Translations under genes and position numbers: made by a program | Virus genome (UHGV): UHGV-1376965 | Length of the DNA: 64,000 bases | Direction: 5' to 3' (one strand) | Source of the DNA: a virus | In this document: piece by piece, positions 2,675 to 62,406 of the stretch | Position numbering within the stretch: the stretch's first letter is position 1 | Layout: every line of letters starts with the position of its first letter | The notes under the pieces: generated by a model | The model's database searches: none | What the model saw: the letters and a program-made list of their open reading frames with translations, nothing else | What the model was told of the DNA's origin: nothing

Positions 2675-4104
2675 TCCTCCTCATACGAAATATTAAAGGT
2701 GGAGTTTTCTGTATCCAGATAAACGAAATCGTAAAAGCCGTTGGACTCATTCCACTCGACAAATTCCAGATAAAAGTCGCGGAAATAACCCAGCGTTTCG
2801 ATAAATGCCCAAACGTCTTTTTTCTTGATTAGGATGTACTTGCCGACACGGTTCGGATCAAAGAAAGTTGAGTCACGCCCAAATTTTGTTTCCAGTGCCG
2901 ACTTCAGCTCATCAGTCACGTTCTCAATGGTCAGGCTTGCCGATATCCGCCCAGTGATGGTGATCTTAAAGGGTAGTTTTCTGACCTCTTTATACGAGAA
3001 TTTCTTGTTCAACTCATTCGGCACCTTCTTAAAGGCAGCCAGGATCATTTCTTCAAGCTCTGACTGGCTTTTGTTTGGATGCCATCCTGAAATAAATATC
3101 TTATTGATATTCCGAACATTATAAGCACCATCTAATTTCTCTTGCTGGCCTTCGCCCCATGCCTTTACCCAGGACAGTCCCGGGATGTTACGCACCAGAA
3201 AATACGTATAGTCCCCGCCCCATACGACCTGATCATCATAGGCAAGGTAATATTGTGCACGATTACGTGTGATCTCCGTTGTTTCGGCATCGGTACCTGC
3301 GGTTATGGGTGTCGTTGTCTTAACTGAAATCAAATTAGCTAAATTAGCCGCAGAATCGACAGGAGTCAGGTTTTGGCCAGCAACCAGGGTTATATCTCCG
3401 TTGGTGCACCATACCTTAAGTGTAATGGTCGAGCCTTCTGGCGGTATTTGCCCAATTAGCCCATCACCGAATCGAACCCCCAACTGCTCGGATGGCTTAT
3501 AAAACTCAACGTAGACCTGGCTTTTACTACCGGCTAACCGGAACATAGTGCTGGAAGACCACTGCGTGGTCTTACCATCGGTCGTCACGAATACTTCCAG
3601 CTTATAGCAGACAGCAGTGAGAGCCTTTGATAACACGACTTCCAGAAATTCTTTGGCTGCCGTAACGGTATATGTCACCTCCTGGATTTCCAACTGTGCC
3701 ACTTCTACCGTACCGGTGCCGTCAACCAACCTGCATACATCCATAGTCATGTAAGGGTACTGGTCGTCAGATATTAAAGGCGTGTTTTTGGGGATTACCG
3801 CTGGAGCATCTTCACTTGTGGCTGTGATCTCAACCATCCCGGATGACGGTGTTGGCTTGGTACCAACGTAACTATTCGTTTCTGCCGCTGCCAGGATAGA
3901 GGAACGCCGCGTCGCGGTCGATATAAAGCCTTCAGCCAGCGCCGCATCGGCATACTGAAAGCACCTGTAGACAATCTGGGTAATAAACAATGTCAGCATC
4001 GAGACAAATTGAGAGCCGACAAACTTCGACCAGAATGAATCTTTCTCGACAAGCTCTTCAAACTCTGCACGAATACTGTCTTTAGTCGGTGTTGTTTTAC
4101 TCAT
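2671..4104 (-). CDS. Baseplate protein (J-like wedge component)
   Basis: 477-aa ORF, overlap-coupled to both neighbours; size and position fit a baseplate wedge protein. Confidence 0.55.
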   Translation of the reverse strand: MSKTTPTKDSIRAEFEELVEKDSFWSKFVGSQFVSMLTLFITQIVYRCFQYADAALAEGFISTATRRSSILAAAETNSYVGTKPTPSSGMVEITATSEDAPAVIPKNTPLISDDQYPYMTMDVCRLVDGTGTVEVAQLEIQEVTYTVTAAKEFLEVVLSKALTAVCYKLEVFVTTDGKTTQWSSSTMFRLAGSKSQVYVEFYKPSEQLGVRFGDGLIGQIPPEGSTITLKVWCTNGDITLVAGQNLTPVDSAANLANLISVKTTTPITAGTDAETTEITRNRAQYYLAYDDQVVWGGDYTYFLVRNIPGLSWVKAWGEGQQEKLDGAYNVRNINKIFISGWHPNKSQSELEEMILAAFKKVPNELNKKFSYKEVRKLPFKITITGRISASLTIENVTDELKSALETKFGRDSTFFDPNRVGKYILIKKKDVWAFIETLGYFRDFYLEFVEWNESNGFYDFVYLDTENSTFNISYEEE

Positions 4105-4460
4105 AGCACCACGTCCTGTGTGATAGTTATATCCCTGATACGAATGGATATTTTCAACTTATCAAAAGCATCTCCCTCGGCTACTGACAAACCAGAAATC
4201 GGTATGTCAGGTAAATCTACCGTCAGTTTTTGCAACAGCATTGCCTCAACCGCAATTTGAACATGCGACAAGTTGGTCGGTTCGTGTTTAAACTGCGGTA
4301 AAACATTGCCCCATGACGGATCCCCGTATACCTCACCCTGATAAGTGTTTAGCCACTCATATAAACGAGCGCCCCAGGCCTCCTCCTGGGACTCATACGT
4401 TTTTACGCCGGATAACTCCAGCGTCAGTAAAGGATCAATTTCATTATTGTTGGCCATCAA
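4101..4460 (-). CDS. Small baseplate protein (gp25/W-like position)
   Basis: 119-aa ORF overlap-coupled to the sit stop. Confidence 0.5.
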   Translation of the reverse strand: MMANNNEIDPLLTLELSGVKTYESQEEAWGARLYEWLNTYQGEVYGDPSWGNVLPQFKHEPTNLSHVQIAVEAMLLQKLTVDLPDIPISGLSVAEGDAFDKLKISIRIRDITITQDVVL

Positions 4461-7400
4461 TCAACTCTCGCGTAGTCATTCATCAACGGATCATCAATTG
4501 ACAGTGGCACCGTGCGCATAACGCCCGGTTGAGGCGTGCTGACCTTTACGACAGTTCCCTGGCCTTTCGCCGAGTCTTTAGTGTGCTCTTCAATCCTGGC
4601 AAGCAATGAGGTCATCTGCGCAAACAGCCGCTTCGTTTCACCATCAAGTGAAACGGTATTATCAGCCAACTGCATTGTCGGCTTGGCACCGGAGCCGCCA
4701 AGGTCACTAATAACCTGTCCGTCTATCTGCATACGACCGGTTGGTTGCTGCAAATCGTTGGCGGCAGTCGTCACCAGGGACGTGGAGGCTGGTTCAGGCG
4801 CATTATTTTTCCGCATCCCCGGCGAGTTGCGGAGTTTATCGAATAGTCCATCAATCCCCATTTGTGCGCCGAGTTGGTCAAAGTAACTTGAGTTGCTGGC
4901 CACCGGACGCGCCTCTTCAACTGGCATCGGAGTATCAACATACACATTGCCAGCTGCTGTTGCGGTCCCCTTCCCTCGTGCACGTTCTTCGAGCGTTCCC
5001 TGAACGACTTCCCGACGCATACCCCGGCCATTCATGAATTTGTTGACCAGATCGTTAACACCAACAGCATTGCCAATTTTGTCTACCAGACCGCCTTTCT
5101 CAAACGGGCTATCACCAGGGGTAAACGCCAGGCCAGTAGACTGATCGATAACAGCGTTATCAGGCAGCTTTTCGTGAATTGCTGGTGCGCTATGATCTAC
5201 CTTAGAGCCATAAACGGCACCATTATTGAGCATCTGCTGATACCCTCTGACACGAGTAACATATTCGCCGGTACCGGCGACTACTCTCCCCTTATCAACA
5301 TGCCCCATACCAGCATGATAGGCAGCTATTGCACGACCCTGATCACCGTTATAACGGTTCATCAGCATACTTAGGTATCTGGCGGCACCATCAGCTGCTT
5401 TTCGTGTATCCATGGCATCAGCATCGCTGAGTCCAAGATCCTCCCTTGTACCTTTAGTGATCTGAAAAGCCCCAAGGGCAGATGAAAGTTTGTTCCCGTT
5501 TTTGTCTACTGGATTTCCAGTTCTCTGGCCTGCACTAGACTCTGCGGATGCAACTGCTGACAGAATCCCTTTTTCAAGCCCATACTTACGTTCAAGCTCA
5601 TCAAAATAATCGGCATTGTCAGAAATCCATTGGTATCCGGCAGCATTTAATTTTGGCAAAGAAACATCCTTGCCATTGTTAAATCGACGTTTATCTATCT
5701 CATATGCACTTAATGCTTCCTCCTTACCTGTAGCAGACTGGCCCAAGGCAGCATCAATTGTTTGTGCTGCTTTATTTCCTGTTTCTACGGCATTTGCATT
5801 GATAATCTGATTAGCAGTTTCTTTAACTGTTTTATTGCTATCTTTCGCCATATCCAGGGCCGCATTTATCACGCGAGCAGCAATATTAGTCTGTTTGGCA
5901 TCGGATTCAGCTTTAGAATCAGATGTCCCCTGCTGGCTATTAACCGGAGCTTTTAACTCTGGAGTGATTTCTTTCGCATTAGCCTCGCCGATCGGATTGG
6001 GTATTTTTGATACAATCATTGCCGCAGGGGTATTTTTAACGGCATCAACCGCTGCATCTAATGCTTTACCTGGTAAATTTTTAACCCCATCCCAAATATT
6101 ACTAGCTGCCTCTTTAATGTGTTTCCCTGGGTTCTTAATGAAATCAATTGCACTATCAATTGCATCACTGAAAACCTGTTTCAGGTTATCGACAGTAAAG
6201 AAGTCTTTGATGGCATCCAGCTTTTCAAGCAGCTTATTAGATGTATCGCTAAACCATGCTGAAACAGCATCACCAATCTTTGCTGTGTAATCATCGAACT
6301 TGGTAGAAATGGTGTCGCCAAGGTTAGAAATATATGTTTCTAAGTTGGTAATCCCACTATCAATGGCCTGGGCAATACTTTCCGTCGAAAATGATTGCAA
6401 CATATTGCCGATATCCTCAAATCCAAGTGATTTGAGAGCCTCACCAATGGCGCTGCTAATACCAGATACCAGTCCCCCCATATCAAGAACATTAGCTAAC
6501 GTATAAGCGGCTTTTTGCTGGAATGATGGATCTTGTCCTGATTTAAGCCCAAACGCTCGACGTTGCGTTTCTGTATCATTCCAACCGGTTACCGCATCAT
6601 AAATACCTCCAGCCACTGTGCCGACTAGGGGAATTGCGCGTAACGCCCCTTTACCAACTGCCTTTAATCCAAGTTTACCTGCTGCCCGGGCAGCCAAATC
6701 TCCGCCTTCATGGGCGAGAGTCTTCTTGCCACCACCGCGTAGCATTCCTACAAGTTTCTTTGCCCCCAGAGCGCCAAAAGCGAGTGCTCCAGCTTTTTTC
6801 AGCATGCCACGCCCCATTAACAACGACGCGACGCCACCGGCCCCCTTCCCTAACAGGCTAAATAATTTGGACAGCAAGCCGCCCTTCTTTTTCCCGGTGT
6901 TTTTGGCTATCTGATCAAGGGCGCTGAGAATCTTGTCATTGCCCTCTTTAATTTCGCTGGTCTGATCCTGAAGTTCCTGAACCGTCCGTTTTTGGGTGTT
7001 AACCTGAACGACATCGGCACTATTTTGCGATTTACGCCTAAAAAAACCTTTTCTACGGCTGTTATCGTCATTGCCACGAATCACATCGGCAATAGACTTT
7101 CTGGCACCATTAAGCGATCCACCAACTTCTTTTGATATCCCGCCAAGCTCCTTCCCTGCGGCCCACAATGGACCAGCAACGGCATAACCTAACGCATCGA
7201 CGGCGCGAGTCTCTGAAGGGTTACCTATGCCTTCAGCTACTTTTGACAGTTTTTTTAATAAACCTGATTCAGCATTTAGACGCTCATCATCCTCTTTGCG
7301 CCTGGCCTTTTCAGCACGTTCAGCACGGGCATCTTCCGCTGCGGCCTTACTCCCTGGCTTTCCAATAAAACGACCACGCGCATCGCGTTGGTTTTGGCTT

Positions 7401-22329: not shown

Positions 22330-22415
22330 AAGGTGAAATCGTGGCGATTTCACCTTGAAATTTTAGATGGATTTACTTTAAAAACAGTTGGTTAATAGTG
22401 AAATTTGAATGGCGA
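22330..22415. other. parS: parS partition site
   Basis: Heptamer boxes ATTTCAC/GTGAAAT and hexamer TCGCCA (as TGGCGA) in GTGAAATCGTGGCGATTTCACCTTGAAAT and again in TAGTGAAATTTGAATGGCGAAAG, immediately downstream of parB. Confidence 0.75.
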
Positions 22416-22419
22416 AAGT

Positions 22420-23421
22420 TTAAGGCTTCGGCTTTTTATCGAGGCTCTTTCTAAGGATATGCCCAATCATCCTGTCGAGTTCTTCCTGTAGCTCTTTTGA
22501 AAGTCGATTAAACTCATAAGAAAATGCACGGCCTTTCACGCGCTTCCTTGCAAAGCGATCCTTGTCCTCAAATTTCCATAATTCAGTAACTACGGACTTA
22601 TCTTTAGAACCTTTATCCGTGAGTAGTGAGGCTTCCTTTGTTATCAAGCGCAGGATTTTATTTTTAACTTCATCTTCGGCCATTTCTTCAATGGATAAGA
22701 TGTCGTTTATTTCCGGAGATATGTTTTGAATAAGCTGATCAAACTCTAAATTCTTGTTCCCCATTTCGTCGCCAACAGCACAAAGCGTTTTGTAGTCCGA
22801 AAAGGTTAATTCCGACTGAACAGGGAAAAGGGCGACTAATTCTTCCGGAGCACTCGCTGCCTGGAGAGCACGCGTGACCTTCGCCTGAGACAGCCCTTCT
22901 TTGGCTGCAATATCCTTCTGACTCATCCCATCATTTTTCATTCGCATCAAACGCAGACCTATTTCTCGAATGCTGTGCTGCAATGCTGTCTGAACGTCTT
23001 TCGCTAAATTTTGCGCTTCCTGAACGCTGATCTCCTGGTCCGTGACTAAAACCCGCAACCCTACGTTCTCTAAGATGGCAGAAGCTCGACGCCGGGAACC
23101 ATCCAAAATTTCAATTTTCCCTGTAGCCCGTCTAACACCTATTGCAGGGTAAAATTGCTGATGCTTAATAGTGCTTCGGATACTTTTTAATGATTTTGGC
23201 GTAAGAGATGCCTGGTCACGCCCGTTGTTATGCTGATCAACAAAGGTATCGCTTTCTACCTGGTTCGGAGGTATTACCTCTTCAATAAATGTGGCCTGGC
23301 GACCAGTTGATAACTTGAATACCTGCTCGACTCGATCGCCAGAGGCTGAAGAACTATCAAATCCGCTTAATATTGAAGGATTAAGGGTTCGCCCAATTGT
23401 TGGTCTGTTTTTCTTTGACAT
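22420..23421 (-). CDS. parB: Partition protein ParB (centromere-binding)
   Basis: 333 aa; matches my recollection of P1 ParB in length and N-terminus (MSKKNRPTIGRTLNPSILSG). Confidence 0.9.
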   Translation of the reverse strand: MSKKNRPTIGRTLNPSILSGFDSSSASGDRVEQVFKLSTGRQATFIEEVIPPNQVESDTFVDQHNNGRDQASLTPKSLKSIRSTIKHQQFYPAIGVRRATGKIEILDGSRRRASAILENVGLRVLVTDQEISVQEAQNLAKDVQTALQHSIREIGLRLMRMKNDGMSQKDIAAKEGLSQAKVTRALQAASAPEELVALFPVQSELTFSDYKTLCAVGDEMGNKNLEFDQLIQNISPEINDILSIEEMAEDEVKNKILRLITKEASLLTDKGSKDKSVVTELWKFEDKDRFARKRVKGRAFSYEFNRLSKELQEELDRMIGHILRKSLDKKPKP

Positions 23422-23437
23422 GGGGGTTTCTTACTCC

Positions 23438-24634
23438 TCAGTTAGATCTGATAAATTCAATACGGTCAAAAACTGCTTTAGCAAAATCTTCCGCGGCAAT
23501 TCGCGCGTTCTTCAATGCATCAGCACTACCAACATACGTTGCCGGGTTAGCTGAAATAACAGTGTCAAAAGACTCGCCGCAGCGTTCAAAACCGTCAAGG
23601 CGAGGGAGGACGACATCAAGCATATCCCCACCGAACACTTCTTTAGCCAGGCTATGGCAATACTTATGATCTGCCTTGTTACTCAACTTGGACATAAAAC
23701 CAATGTTAGTCGCAAGCTGGCACTCGCAGCCTTCATCCGAAATGAGTTTTACCAACTCAGGAAGGCGGGCAACGTATTTAAGCGATGAGTGGAAATCGAC
23801 AGTTGCTGGCGGCAGAGGTGTAAACAGTATATTGGCCGAGGCCAAAGCATTTTTCAGGAAGGCGTCAAGGTGAGGACCACTATCAACGAGGATAAAGTCA
23901 TAATCGCTCTTCAGCTTATCAATCACATTTTCTTTCAGGACAGCATGGATGTTCTGACCCGGTAGATGCTCATTGCACAGCTCTCTCCAATCGGATGCAA
24001 TAAAGGCATCGTCAATCGACGCAGGCATAACATCAACCCCAGGTACAACAGAAGGAACAATAAACTCCTCTAACAGCTCTTCACGGCTTACATTCTGCAA
24101 CATAGCCTGTGCAGATGTTGCGTTTACGATACCAATAGAGTGTTTATGGCTTAAAAACATCGTTGCTGAAGATTGCGGATCAAGGTCAATAACCAGAATC
24201 CTTAAATCTTCCATCAGAAGATGAGGGTGGGCACGCATTGCATGCGCCAGAGAAACCGTCGATACAGTTTTTGACACACCGCCTTTAAGATTGGAGATGA
24301 AAATCACATACGCTTCGCTGTAGCGATCCCGGTATTTTGGCACTCCGCGATGTTCATATATGTCAATGATGTTCTGAATTGACATCGCATATTTCATTGA
24401 AGAGCCAGCAGGGCGTTTATCGAAAACATAACCCTTTTCTTCCATTTCACTTACGGCATAGTCAACGTTCGCTCGAGTCAGTAGAGGCAATTTTGCCAGT
24501 GCCGCTTTCGCATAGACCTGGTAAAACTCGTTCGCGTGTAGCTCATCCTTTTGCAACTGTACTTGTTCAGTCAGAACATTGAGCATTCTGTTTGCTCTTT
24601 GAGCAACCTTGTGAAGCTGGCTGGAATCACTCAT
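23438..24634 (-). CDS. parA: Partition ATPase ParA (long N-terminal type)
   Basis: 398 aa; deviant Walker A KGGVSKT; upstream of parB in the same operon. Confidence 0.9.
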   Translation of the reverse strand: MSDSSQLHKVAQRANRMLNVLTEQVQLQKDELHANEFYQVYAKAALAKLPLLTRANVDYAVSEMEEKGYVFDKRPAGSSMKYAMSIQNIIDIYEHRGVPKYRDRYSEAYVIFISNLKGGVSKTVSTVSLAHAMRAHPHLLMEDLRILVIDLDPQSSATMFLSHKHSIGIVNATSAQAMLQNVSREELLEEFIVPSVVPGVDVMPASIDDAFIASDWRELCNEHLPGQNIHAVLKENVIDKLKSDYDFILVDSGPHLDAFLKNALASANILFTPLPPATVDFHSSLKYVARLPELVKLISDEGCECQLATNIGFMSKLSNKADHKYCHSLAKEVFGGDMLDVVLPRLDGFERCGESFDTVISANPATYVGSADALKNARIAAEDFAKAVFDRIEFIRSN

Positions 24635-24774
24635 CGAAAGTCATCCTTTATGCTGTATTTTTGAATTTAATTAAAAATGCTGCATAAAATAATAATGTAT
24701 GCGTAGATGCTTGTACATAGCATTCTCTGCATGTTTGGTTCATTTTGCACGATTGAGAGTTACAAGAAAGGCAC

Positions 24775-24800
24775 AAAAAAGCCCCGTTCAGGGGCATCAG
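24775..24800 (-). terminator. Rho-independent terminator after the T5orf172-like gene
   Basis: Minus strand reads GCCCCTGAACGGGGC then TTTTTTG. Confidence 0.7.
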
Positions 24801-24802
24801 TG

Positions 24803-25612
24803 TTATTTGCTAAGAGCAGCGAATAATCGTTCGAAATCGATAGTATCTATAGCACGCGTAAGCGCCGGAAGTTCAGCCTCAAAGTACCCGTGTCGATCGT
24901 AAAAGAAGGGACCGAAGAGCGAGGCATGTTGGATTATACTTCGCCCCAGCCCGGACACACAGTTAAGCCCATTACCGGCTAAAAGGCTAAAAAACTTCTC
25001 TGGATTATCGTGGTAAAGCTGGGAATCAATGGTGGCGGTTAACTCTTCCATAGGGAAGCACACCCGCCCTGTATCCCAGGGATATTTAGTCCGAAGCATA
25101 AACATTGCTTTCAGCAATTCACATTGAGCGAGGATCGCGTCCGGTTCATAGCCAGATATGGAGACATAAGCCACGTCCCTCATTCCTGCGTCATCTTTGA
25201 AAGTCACGATAGAAGTAACATCCAGCTCTTTTTCGAAAGAGCAAGCAGCATCTACTGGACGCTGAAGTAAATCATTCGACTTAATGCGCTCGAGAATCCC
25301 TCCCCACATATCATTTAGATATTCGATATGAGCCAAAACCTTATCAAGACACTCTCGTGTAAACCATTCAGTATGCCCGCCACCGACGCTTTTCTCCCAC
25401 GGCGCATTCCAGGGGAAAAAGGTTGCGTGTAAAGCCCGCTCAAGATTAACCATTGCCAAACGCGTACCACGATAGACCCGTGAAAGCGCAAAATCGGGAC
25501 TCACTTGTAGCCCTTTAAACCGTGCCAATGGACCACATGAAATGCCGATTTTAAAAGTATCTCCGTTCTCTGGCACCAGAACGTAGAGGTAGTGTTGTTT
25601 CTCTTCTTGCAT
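24803..25612 (-). CDS. T5orf172 / GIY-YIG-superfamily domain protein with unknown C-terminal domain
   Basis: 269 aa; N-terminus YLYVLVPENGDTFKIGIS ... GGGHTEWF resembles the T5orf172 family; own terminator; sits between incA iterons and the par promoter. Confidence 0.65.
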   Translation of the reverse strand: MQEEKQHYLYVLVPENGDTFKIGISCGPLARFKGLQVSPDFALSRVYRGTRLAMVNLERALHATFFPWNAPWEKSVGGGHTEWFTRECLDKVLAHIEYLNDMWGGILERIKSNDLLQRPVDAACSFEKELDVTSIVTFKDDAGMRDVAYVSISGYEPDAILAQCELLKAMFMLRTKYPWDTGRVCFPMEELTATIDSQLYHDNPEKFFSLLAGNGLNCVSGLGRSIIQHASLFGPFFYDRHGYFEAELPALTRAIDTIDFERLFAALSK

Positions 25613-25644
25613 ATCAATACCACTGCTTGATGAGAACCGCGCAA

Positions 25645-25896
25645 ATGTTGACTATGCGCGAAGGTTAATGTGAATAGTTGACTATGCGCGATGTGACTAC
25701 AGTCAAAAGTTGACTGTAGTCGATTTAACTCCACCAAAGATCGACTATGTAAGATATTGTCGGGAGAAACGTTGACTATACGCGATGAAATGCCCCTAAA
25801 AGCCATCTCAATAGCGACTTGCAGAATATTGACGCCAGCAAAAATCCACCAGCGTCAACGAATGTCGCCTATAGTCAACTTCTCGCTATCGCATAT
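25645..25896. repeat. incA-like iteron array downstream of repA (about 9 copies, both orientations)
   Basis: Repeated TTGACTATGCGCG / CGCGTATAGTCAA-type units. Confidence 0.8.
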
Positions 25897-25904
25897 AGTC
25901 AATA

Positions 25905-26825
25905 TTATGGATTGCGCTTATGGATCTGGAAGCCGATTTTCCTGCCGTTTTTTATCTCTGAAAATTTAAGATATTCAATAGCTTCCAAATCTTTCATGGC
26001 TTTTCTGATAACGCTATTTTGCACGCTAACGGATGATTTGAGATTAAGCCTCGCTCTAAGGCGCTCAATGCTGACAGGTGCCGGGTTGGCGGGTAGAGCC
26101 TCAAAGAATGTATACAGTACCTTGGCCGTCTCTTTGCGCCCTAGTTTATCCAGCATCTTCAGCTTCAGGATTCGCTTATAGTCAACATAGTAAAGTTCAG
26201 ATAGCTGTTTCTGCGGCTGGATCTCGATAACATCAAGCTCGGTATTCAGGCTGCTATATGCCAACAAGTTGACGTTAATGTTATTGAGATGACCTTTTGC
26301 CGCCGGGAAGCGGAATTTGACAACTGTCTGCTGAATGCGTGTCAGAGAGTCATCAATACTTTTACGGAACGCCTTTGAAAGGCGCTTACGTGGATAGCCG
26401 CATCGATCGGCAAACTCGGAGAATGGCAGGGTGATTATGCCGTCATCATCAGGTGCGTAGTCAAACAACGCGGAGGTTATGCCCACCCACACCTTAAAAT
26501 CAGTATCCATATCCAGGCGTGGACCATGAATTTCAATTCCCTCATAGCCTTCCTGCTCAACAATTTTGAGGCTTGATAGTTCTTCAGTTGCGTTCGTTGT
26601 GTTTGTTGTAACTGACGATCCGCGACGTAGCGCCACATTGGTAGATTTTAAGGTTGGCACAAACACACCTAAGCGCAACAAAGCGATGGGTTGTATAGTG
26701 CTGTTGTTATTGGGCTTCAGGCTGTGGATTTCTCCTGTATTTCCTGCAACTTCTTCAACGCTAAGGAAGCCTTTACTTTCTTCCGGCATCACGGTTTCTC
26801 CATGTGTGGCGCGGCCTGACGTCAA
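25905..26825 (-). CDS. repA: Plasmid replication initiator RepA (P1/RepFIB family); true start may be 26789
   Basis: 306-aa ORF with conserved GPRLDMDTDFKVW segment, flanked by iteron arrays. Confidence 0.85.
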   Translation of the reverse strand: MTSGRATHGETVMPEESKGFLSVEEVAGNTGEIHSLKPNNNSTIQPIALLRLGVFVPTLKSTNVALRRGSSVTTNTTNATEELSSLKIVEQEGYEGIEIHGPRLDMDTDFKVWVGITSALFDYAPDDDGIITLPFSEFADRCGYPRKRLSKAFRKSIDDSLTRIQQTVVKFRFPAAKGHLNNINVNLLAYSSLNTELDVIEIQPQKQLSELYYVDYKRILKLKMLDKLGRKETAKVLYTFFEALPANPAPVSIERLRARLNLKSSVSVQNSVIRKAMKDLEAIEYLKFSEIKNGRKIGFQIHKRNP

Positions 26826-27085
26826 TTTGGATGGCTGTTATCAACAGCTGTGAATATTCAGACTCTAAAATCGCTTACAGTCAATGTTTCTGTCGCGTAT
26901 AGTCAACAATAAATCGCGTGCAGTCAACAATAAATCGTGCACAGTCAACATAAAATCGCGTATAGTCAATGTTGATCCCATTTCAGGCCAGTAATGACGC
27001 GGCTTACAGCGATCCGGGATCTTCTTTGGATCTTCCTAGGTTCTCTTTAGGATCTGTTTATTGGATCTATGCTGTGGATAAGTTG
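26826..27085. other. Plasmid origin region (oriR-like): DnaA-box-like site, five direct iterons (incC-like), GATC cluster
   Basis: TGTTATCAACAG near 26838; five CGCGTATAGTCAAC-type iterons at 26868-26976; at least six GATC sites at 26990-27080. Confidence 0.75.
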
Positions 27086-27089
27086 AATA

Positions 27090-27110
27090 AACCGGCCAAC
27101 AAAGCCGGTT
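27090..27110 (-). terminator. Rho-independent terminator
   Basis: CCGGCCAACAAAGCCGG hairpin; minus strand followed by TTTATT. Confidence 0.55.
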
Positions 27111-27124
27111 GGAAGGAAGTCATA

Positions 27125-27517
27125 TTATTCTACGCTTTCGATAAGAAGACCATGTTCATAACATTTAAGCTCATCGCCTTCATACAGGAATTGGTATCCA
27201 ACACCACCATCTTCATGGACATTAGGGAATAACTCATAACTCACTGAAGAGCAAATTACACCAATGCAGCGATCAACGCCTTCTCGTTCTTCAGTGCTGA
27301 AAAAATCCTCTTCGGTAAGAACATGAGTACATTGCTCATCAGCATAGGTCGGAAATACATGCTCAATGCAATCCGGGTGTTTTAAACCAAGCTGATCGGC
27401 AAGCTCGAAAGCACGACGGTATTGTTCAGATCCTGGCTTGCCAACAGTGATTTGCTCAATTTTGTAGATTGAAGTCGCTTTGTTGATAGTTTGCTTTACT
27501 GTTACTTTATCAGACAT
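27125..27517 (-). CDS. Hypothetical protein
   Basis: 130-aa ORF, last gene of this minus-strand operon. Confidence 0.5.
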   Translation of the reverse strand: MSDKVTVKQTINKATSIYKIEQITVGKPGSEQYRRAFELADQLGLKHPDCIEHVFPTYADEQCTHVLTEEDFFSTEEREGVDRCIGVICSSVSYELFPNVHEDGGVGYQFLYEGDELKCYEHGLLIESVE

Positions 27518-27528
27518 AAAAATCCCTT

Positions 27529-27780
27529 TTAGTTACCGCTAATAGCTCGGTTGTAATCATTAACGTTGCGATTCTTCCTGTTAATCCCCATCAGCATCGT
27601 TTCTGTATCGAGGATATACGCTGGCAGATCATCAAAATATTCACTGCTAAACTCTGGCATCCTGCACATAAATGCACTTTTGGGGGCAGGGTGGTTAACC
27701 TTTGTCGGCGTCGGCGTTAAATTCGCTGATCGACTGCCGGAGCAACCGCTGAGTGTCAGCAGGAATGCGCTGGCGAACAT
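27529..27780 (-). CDS. Outer-membrane lipoprotein, o-spanin (Rz1)-like
   Basis: Lipobox LTLSGC followed by Pro/Thr-rich segment; starts in a different frame inside the 3' end of the upstream gene. ORF track gives 27529..27861. Confidence 0.6.
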   Translation of the reverse strand: MFASAFLLTLSGCSGSRSANLTPTPTKVNHPAPKSAFMCRMPEFSSEYFDDLPAYILDTETMLMGINRKNRNVNDYNRAISGN

Positions 27781-28117
27781 TACCCGCCGCAACCAGTTGT
27801 TTCTGAACTTCAGCTTTTCGTTCCATTTGCCTGTCAGCATATTTGGCTTGTTCTGATTCATTTTTCACTTCCTGGCTGTGAAAATGTTGCTCTGCTTTGT
27901 TCATCGTCTCAATGGTCTGGTTAAGATCCATTATTGACTTATCACGTTCCTTAACAGCCTGATCAAGACTGCCAATTTTCTCCATGGCTTGCTTTAGCTG
28001 ATGACGTTCCCATGCAAACCCAGCACCAACAAGTGCGCAAATCAGAACAAGAACACCAGTAGCAGCAAGTTTCTCCTTCAAAGACAAAGCTGTTTTTAAC
28101 GTAGAAAAGAATGACAT
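27695..28117 (-). CDS. Membrane-anchored coiled-coil protein, i-spanin (Rz)-like
   Basis: N-terminal transmembrane segment then charged coiled coil; AGGAGG ribosome-binding site before the ATG at 28117; 3' end overlaps the lipoprotein gene. Confidence 0.6.
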   Translation of the reverse strand: MSFFSTLKTALSLKEKLAATGVLVLICALVGAGFAWERHQLKQAMEKIGSLDQAVKERDKSIMDLNQTIETMNKAEQHFHSQEVKNESEQAKYADRQMERKAEVQKQLVAAGNVRQRIPADTQRLLRQSISEFNADADKG

Positions 28118-61212: not shown

Positions 61213-62406
61213 GTGACCTGGGACGATCACAAGAAGAATTTTGCTCGCCTGGCGCGAGATGGTGGTTACACCATCGCACAATATGCCGCCGAGTTTAATC
61301 TCAACCCAAACACCGCACGTCGTTATCTCCGTGCATTCAAAGAAGACACCGGAACAGCGGACAGCCGTAAGCCAAATAAGCCTGTCAGAAAACCACTAAA
61401 AAGCATGATCATTGATCACGCTAATGATCAACGTGCAGGTGATCACATTGTGGCTGAAATGGCTGAAAAACAAAGAGTTAATGCTGTTGTCAGTGCCGCA
61501 GTCGAGAACGCGAAGCGCCAGAATAAGCGCATAAATGATCGTTCTGATGATCATGACGTGATCACCCGCGCCCACCGGACCTTACGTGATCGCCTGGAAC
61601 GCGACACCCTGGATGATGATGGTGAACGCTTTGAATTCGAAGCTGGCGATTACCTGATAGATAACGTTGAAGCGCGGAAGGCCGCGCGCGCTATGTTGCG
61701 TCGGTCCGGGGCCGATGTTCTGGAAACCACTCTTCTGGAAAAGTCTCTTTCTCATCTCCTTATGCTGGAGAACGCCAGGGATACGTGTATTCGCCTGGTG
61801 CAGGAAATGCGCGATCAGCAAAAAGACGATGATGAAGGTACTCCGCCTGAATACCGTATCGCGAGCATGCTAAACAGCTGTTCCGCGCAGATAAGCAGCC
61901 TGATCAACACCATTTACAGCATCCGGAATAACTATCGAAAAGAAAGCCGGGAGGCGGAAAAGCACGCTTTGTCTATGGGGCAAGCTGGCATTGTTAAGCT
62001 GGCATACGAACGAAAGCGTGAAAATAACTGGTCAGTGCTGGAAGCAGCTGAATTCATCGAGGCGCATGGCGGGAAAGTGCCGCCCCTGATGCTGGAGCAA
62101 ATCAAAGCCGATCTGCGTGCTCCTAAGACCAATACCGATGATGAGGAAAGGCAAACAGCCGTCGGTGGCCCTTCTCTTGAAGATCTGGACAAAGTTGCGC
62201 GAGAACGGGCCGCCAACCGCCGCGCCGATGCCGCATTGTGGATTGAGCAGCGTAGGGAAGAAATCGCCGATATCGTTGATACAGGCGGTTATGGAGATGT
62301 TGATACTGAAGGTGTATCAAACGACCCATGGCTGGAACAAGACCTGGACGAAGACGAGGAGGAAGACGAAGAAGTTACCCGCAAGCTATACGGGGATGAT
62401 GATTAA
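61213..62406 (+). CDS. pacA: Terminase small subunit PacA
   Basis: 397 aa; contains the pac site in its 5' part; acidic C-terminus; directly upstream of the large subunit. Confidence 0.85.
61405..61565 (+). other. pac packaging site: two clusters of TGATCA/G hexamers (4 + 3) carrying GATC methylation sites
   Basis: ATGATCATTGATCACGCTAATGATCAACGTGCAGGTGATCAC ... AATGATCGTTCTGATGATCATGACGTGATCAC. Confidence 0.85.

Follow-up and report, generated by a model that had tools for sequence, protein, structure and literature searches.

A p0111-type replicon with iterons unlike those of P1 in the P1-like virus genome UHGV-1376965

The closest described counterparts of the replicon analysed here, which occupies positions 25,645 to 27,085 of the virus genome UHGV-1376965, are found among P1-like phage-plasmids. 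In these elements p0111 is a replicon-typing label and the alternative to IncY, the type of the canonical replicon of P1 and P7. JL22 has been described as carrying repA (p0111) and an unknown gene in place of repA (IncY), and 24 of 55 P1-like elements were of the p0111 type (PMC9603915). A further survey counted p0111 in 63 of 119 and IncY in 52 of 119 (PMC10879196), and Salmonella phage-plasmids included 132 with p0111 and 94 with IncY, the type changing repeatedly along the tree (PMC11165635). The RepA proteins of SJ46 and RCS47 were reported to be 42% identical to P1 RepA (PMC5241659). On coexistence, one of these papers says no more of p0111 and IncY than that they "can theoretically be compatible" (PMC11165635). 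The matter has practical weight: replicon type decides the coexistence partners of P1-like phage-plasmids, which are carriers of extended-spectrum β-lactamase (ESBL) and mcr resistance genes, and the IncY/p0111 split already serves typing and surveillance.

The stretch that we analysed, called the window below, is 64,000 nucleotides long, and its replicon is the p0111 type of P1-like phage-plasmids: already known, real but ordinary. Over the 1.5-kb region, phi456 was 100% identical, JL22 and SJ46 98.5% (for JL22 across 100% of the region) and RCS47 97.9%; vB_EcoM-Ro157c2YLVW fell within 97.9–99.9%. A megablast search with the region matched neither canonical P1 nor P7. Only a handful of changed bases in the iterons of the origin set RCS47 apart from the window; both of its iteron arrays are conserved and the downstream one is identical. 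The p0111 elements RCS47, SJ46, JL22 and phi456 and the pMCR-type P1-like plasmids also have in common with the window a T5orf172 gene and the P1-like backbone. Our contribution is to have mapped, base by base, the p0111 origin, its iterons and the junctions at which it replaced the P1 sequence. We found no description of p0111 iterons or junctions in the searchable literature, where the iteron code, the exact junctions and a conserved iteron inside repA appear to be undescribed.

The replicon is common. It was found in 399 plasmids of PLSDB, 396 of them at >=95% identity, mostly from E. coli with some from Salmonella, Shigella and Klebsiella, and most of these carriers are non-mobilizable and approximately 90–100 kb long. 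Twelve phage records, RCS47, SJ46, JL22 and phi456 among them, contain it at the same threshold. For comparison, the full-length canonical P1 replicon was found in 157 plasmids. The names given to the replicon vary: MOB-suite and PLSDB type NZ_CP027133.1, which carries the exact replicon, as 'IncHI1B', and the PlasmidFinder-based literature uses p0111. These two labels are a naming trap when replicon types are counted.

RepA is encoded on the minus strand by the only long open reading frame with family support in 25645–27085. The frame called mechanically spans 25905–26825, and RefSeq starts identical copies at the ATG at 26789, which gives a protein of 294 amino acids (25905–26789). On the basis of Pfam, PHROG and BLAST-type identity we assigned it as an iteron-binding initiator of the P1 RepA, RepFIB or Rep3 kind (p0111 type). 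The protein scored 27.1 bits against Pfam Rep3_C, above the cut-off of 21.1, and matched PHROG 775 with an E-value of 2.6e-134. It is 100% identical to RCS47 RepA and 42% identical to P1 RepA over 272 amino acids (E=7e-71), with likewise 42% for P7 RepA, and at the level of sequence its homology to P1 RepA is unambiguous. None of the window RepA, P1 RepA and the T5orf172 protein had a match in NCBIfam, and a sequence search of the PDB with RepA returned nothing significant.

With repA on the minus strand, the origin side lies at higher coordinates. Five direct iterons form the incC-like array of oriR at 26871–26970 on the plus strand, starting at 26871, 26893, 26914, 26935 and 26956 with a spacing of 22/21/21/21 bp; they read TCGCGTATAGTCAAC in this direction and GTTGACTATACGCGA along the sense strand of repA. 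Beyond them, a cluster of five GATC (Dam) sites occupies 27011–27067 (starts at 27011, 27018, 27029, 27051 and 27064). Five sites in 57 bp, set against a mean of 3.9 per kb, make this the densest GATC cluster of the window apart from that of the pac site, and it is presumably here that oriR opens and senses methylation. The outer end of the origin is marked by a perfect DnaA box, TTATCCACA (27073–27081, minus strand), and a DnaA-box-like site matching at eight of nine positions, TTATCAACA, lies on the plus strand between the origin iterons and the start of repA (26838–26846). The sequence-only reading of this stretch had described five direct iterons, a GATC cluster and a DnaA-box-like site upstream of repA, and the sequence bears out each of them.

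The 15-nt iteron motif TCGCGTATAGTCAAC is strongly concentrated in the replicon. Allowing up to three mismatches, it occurs 14 times in the whole window, and 12 of the 14 matches fall within the 1.3 kb of 25647–26970. The chance expectation is 1.37 matches per window, and none of 100 shuffled sequences reached 14. A weight-matrix scan of the window separated the same locus cleanly, with 12 iteron sites scoring 24–31 bits and everything else at or below 10.6 bits. The variable positions are the middle ones, and TCG and AGTCAA are nearly invariant; the iteron code is TCG-N5-AGTCAAY. The core quoted in the sequence-only reading, TTGACTATGCGCG, was found at 25648 and 25678. Each iteron contains the hexamer TTGACT, which resembles a −35 element.

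Downstream of repA, an incA-like array at 25647–25903 contains six clear iterons in both orientations. Four of them (25647–25661, 25677–25691, 25709–25723 and 25771–25785) are opposite to the origin array and are phased at approximately 31 bp; the other two (25865–25879 and 25889–25903) have the orientation of the origin array, and the stop codon of repA adjoins the last copy. Further downstream candidates at 25693, ~25740 and 25846 did not rise above background in the weight-matrix scan. The one at ~25740 fits the 31-bp phasing and was kept as a degenerate iteron; the other two were dropped. An additional iteron lies inside the coding sequence of repA at 26172–26186 (plus strand), where it scores 24 bits and covers the codons V-D-Y-K-R. 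The downstream count is therefore six clear copies; adding the intragenic and the degenerate one raises it to seven to eight. The sequence-only count of about nine downstream iterons in both orientations thus holds for the orientations and is too high for the number.

The plan of the locus is that of P1. In both, the parts follow the same order, the replicon is sited between upfA and parA, the five origin iterons are spaced at 22/21/21/21 (iterons 10–14 of P1), five GATC sites are present, DnaA boxes lie at either end of the origin, and the initiators are homologous. In the downstream array, as in P1 incA, the distal iterons are inverted and the proximal ones have the incC orientation, with a phasing of approximately 31 bp. 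A RepA homologue, five upstream iterons, a downstream array in two orientations and the DnaA and GATC elements are thus all in place, and the oriR/incC-repA-incA layout proposed from the letters of the window agrees in spacing and orientation plan with the annotated P1 record. The two loci differ in detail. The window has six clear downstream iterons and a single outer DnaA box, and P1 has nine and two in tandem; unlike P1, the window has one iteron inside repA and the T5orf172 gene between incA and parA.

The repeats themselves are unrelated. The P1 record contains 14 iterons of the 19-bp type GATGTGTGCTGGAGGGAAA, to which the window iteron TCGCGTATAGTCAAC bears no relation, and GATGTGTGCTGGAGGGAAA is absent from the 64-kb window even when three mismatches are allowed. 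This bears on one alternative, namely that the locus is simply a canonical P1/P7 (IncY) replicon and that the contrast with the P1 iteron had been drawn in error. P1 does have the same layout, phasing of the five iterons, GATC cluster and DnaA box, but an IncY replicon would have a RepA near-identical to that of P1 and the iteron GATGTGTGCTGGAGGGAAA, and we found a RepA of 42% identity, no such iteron and no megablast match to P1 or P7. The alternative is refuted by these results, and its probability is practically nil; the contrast with the P1 iteron drawn in the sequence-only reading was right.

The backbone around the replicon is that of P1. Identity to P1 was 98.2% over 95% of the length of 564–24700 and 97% over 70% of 39001–64000. 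The junctions were mapped against p15648-1, a P1-type IncY plasmid (IncY also by MOB-suite type) that served as a stand-in for P1. In blastn, identity to this plasmid was 98.7% as far as 24736, a position just upstream of the par promoter, and nothing was alignable over 24737–26986. In a binned alignment, the identity was approximately 70% over 26998–27090, the GATC/DnaA half of the origin, and approximately 94% from 27091 on. Within this half, four of the five GATC sites of the window align positionally with the P1-type origin, which has two tandem DnaA boxes (AGTGGATAATGTGGATAAG) where the window has one perfect box and alignment gaps totalling 7 nt. A right junction at 26987, as the blastn match had indicated, was dropped because of the identity of only ~70% that follows. 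Together, these data delimit a mosaic block of approximately 2.35 kb at 24737–27090 in place of P1 oriR-repA-incA, with its left junction just upstream of the par promoter and its right junction at the outer end of oriR. The right junction is placed at approximately 27082–27090 because of the step from ~70% to ~94% identity and because a diverged relative, described below, departs from the window directly after the outer DnaA box.

The partition module (22333–24634, minus strand) is of the P1 type. It comprises parA (23438–24634), parB (22420–23421) and parS (~22333–22415). ParA is identical to that of P1 at 397 of 398 positions (99%) and ParB at 333 of 333 (100%), and parS is 98% identical, with five differences of which none falls in the ParB boxes, so that all A and B boxes are unchanged. 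The P7 DNA match ends at 22364, short of parB, and the module is for this reason assigned to P1 rather than P7. The P1-like character of the par proteins and parS boxes had been recognised from the letters alone, and the alignments agree. For RCS47, a published statement (PMC5241659, citing Billard-Pomares) has ParA and ParB identical to those of P7 and distant from those of P1. In the RefSeq record of RCS47 (2821–5035), we found ParA and ParB 100% identical to those of the window, which are themselves 99–100% identical to P1, and it seems that P1 and P7 were interchanged in the publication.

Because RepA and the iterons differ while ParA, ParB, the parS boxes and the flanks match P1, the locus is, as judged from these alignments, a mosaic in which a P1 backbone and a P1 partition system are combined with a different replicon. 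The proposal of a mosaic replicon in a P1-like backbone stands on the same contrast, 42% for RepA against 94–99% identity of the DNA flanking the block to P1 or the P1-type IncY plasmid, and describes a type that p0111 had already made known.

Where such a replicon could have come from was considered by comparison with the wider initiator superfamily. The initiators of IncFIB (E. coli), IncFIB(K) (Klebsiella) and the SSU5/pHCM2 type belong to the same superfamily and are 45–49% identical to the window RepA. As in the window, all three have iterons phased at 21 bp upstream of rep and more iterons downstream, and SSU5 also has a DnaA box and a GATC cluster. Their iterons, however, are each different (CTGACTACAGCTTATAT, TGTCTAYTGTATGCTA and AWCCACTGTAGAGAGTAG), and their backbones differ too. 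The alignment with P1, P7 and RepFIB replicons suggested by the sequence-only reading therefore gave 42%, 42% and 45–49% for RepA, with iterons that differ throughout, and neither RepA nor the iterons are identical to those of P1. Across the superfamily, initiator and iteron change together, and the finding that each member has an iteron of its own supports the lack of cross-reaction expected between the p0111 and P1 RepA proteins.

These data also bear on a recent capture of the replicon from a conjugative or other plasmid family, such as IncFIB, IncFIB(K), the SSU5/pHCM2 type or IncHI1B. The NCBI protein names 'RepB family' and 'RepFIB replication protein A', the IncHI1B typing of a carrier by PLSDB/MOB-suite and the slightly closer relationship of RepA to the IncFIB-type and SSU5 initiators than to P1 speak for such an origin. 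Against it, neither a close RepA nor a common iteron was found in the IncFIB and SSU5 replicons, P1 is still matched at ~70% identity over the GATC/DnaA half of the origin, and the spacing and orientation of the iterons are those of P1. Moreover, among the best 5000 records, 395 matched at >=95%, four at 60–95% and the rest below 60%, with no close copy outside P1-like elements, and the only diverged relatives found are a cassette in a phage-plasmid-like backbone and a P1-like fragment in an IncHI2 plasmid. We therefore regard recent capture as improbable and favour a diverged homologue of the P1 replicon.

The more informative of these relatives is a cassette at 3836–5238 of the 93.7-kb plasmid pNCYU-26-73-5 (CP042620.1), which is 76% identical to the window in nucleotide sequence and encodes a RepA of 85% identity. 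Each homologous position in it is occupied by an iteron (five in the origin with the same 22/21/21/21 spacing, plus four inverted copies, two direct ones and one inside repA), and the core of the motif is kept. Also retained are all five GATC sites and the two DnaA boxes, of which the one equivalent to 26838–26846 is a perfect TTATCCACA. This conservation is the best in silico support that the repeats may be functional. Directly after the outer DnaA box the sequence diverges, and neither the T5orf172 gene nor parAB adjoins the cassette. The comparison also shows that the basic cassette is the unit of approximately 25645–27082. The proteins encoded beside the cassette are only 40–60% similar to the products of P1 (morphogenesis) genes, and the cassette looks like a copy housed in a phage-plasmid backbone further removed from P1, perhaps of the D6 kind.

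The same plasmid gives some insight into the intragenic iteron. The two repA genes are 75% identical in nucleotide sequence, and the intragenic 15-mer is identical and in the same place in both. It falls within the second-longest identical run between the two genes. Only 48% of the codons for conserved amino acids are identical, so that chance alone would produce a few runs of this kind, and the conservation is no more than suggestive. The intragenic copy could provide an additional site of control.

Conservation across such a distance is also relevant to whether repA and its repeats might be a decayed remnant, with another replicon maintaining the element. We found nothing in specific support of this idea, and the repA frame is intact and its product 100% identical to that of RCS47 and phi456, which are inducible, lysogenising phages. 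The hundreds of non-mobilizable carriers of 90–100 kb and the iterons kept in the 76%-identical cassette of pNCYU-26-73-5 point the same way, and we consider a remnant very unlikely.

Taken as a whole, the locus is very probably the low-copy maintenance replicon of a P1-like phage-plasmid, of the p0111 type and a diverged homologue of the P1 replicon in a P1 backbone. Following the P1 paradigm, RepA monomers would bind the five phased origin iterons with their 15-bp core, and the boxes at either end of the origin would be bound by host DnaA. Opening would take place in the GATC-rich stretch, whose use would depend on Dam methylation. Origin-bound RepA would repress its own promoter, and the downstream array would titrate RepA and pair with the origin ('handcuffing'), which would hold the copy number down. 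Several points weigh against this reading. The p0111 assignment was made via JL22, RCS47 and SJ46 and not via the PlasmidFinder reference AP010962. The Rep3_N domain of RepA scored 21.8 bits, just under the Pfam cut-off of 22.4. A sigma-70 consensus scan of the origin iteron array on the repA strand found no promoter match; the best candidate by eye, TTGACT-17 nt-CTGAAT beside the last iteron, is weak. RepA binding, origin firing, autorepression and copy control are argued from the P1 analogy, and the 'different incompatibility group' is an inference, the papers that we could read containing no experimental demonstration of compatibility with IncY.

For incompatibility, the mosaic structure leads to a divided expectation. 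Because both the initiator (42%) and the iterons differ, replication cross-talk with P1 and P7 (IncY), that is, incompatibility of the incA/incC type, should be lost. Because ParA, ParB and parS are the same as in P1, whose record annotates parS/ParAB as the incB determinant, partition (incB) incompatibility with P1 should be kept, and prophage immunity should still act between the window element and P1. With the partition module still of the P1 type, full compatibility with P1 is not to be assumed.

A broader proposal is that oriR-repA-incA (~25645–27082) is an exchangeable cassette that moves among P1-like and P1/D6-like phage-plasmids via conserved edges, thereby escaping replication incompatibility while keeping the P1 partition system. 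Recombination may take place at two edges, one at the DnaA-box/GATC end of the origin and the other upstream of the par promoter. We put this forward tentatively and hold it to be possible rather than probable.

Within the swapped block, between the incA-like array and the par promoter, lies a T5orf172/GIY-YIG-like gene for a protein of 269 amino acids (24803–25612, minus strand), identified by Pfam T5orf172. Its product matches PHROG 2876, a family of unknown function, and PADLOC gave no match for it. The gene is absent at this position in P1 and also beside the cassette of pNCYU-26-73-5; it travels with the p0111 replicon but is outside the basic replicon. A terminator-like hairpin follows the gene at 24795–24781.

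Two further observations concern partial or unrelated sequences. Positions 4001–6352 of pHum4b (NZ_OR724977.1), a 291-kb conjugative IncHI2 plasmid, are 87% identical to 25624–27984 of the window and span the replicon and the upfA side. The annotation of this copy has no more than short hypothetical proteins for repA, and the copy may be a decayed P1-like fragment or the product of a low-quality assembly. Elsewhere in the window, a second dense GATC cluster at 61405–61565 consists of four TGATCA sites followed, after a gap of approximately 90 bp, by TGATCG, TGATCA and TGATCA, a layout that we take to be that of the P1 packaging (pac) site within pacA.

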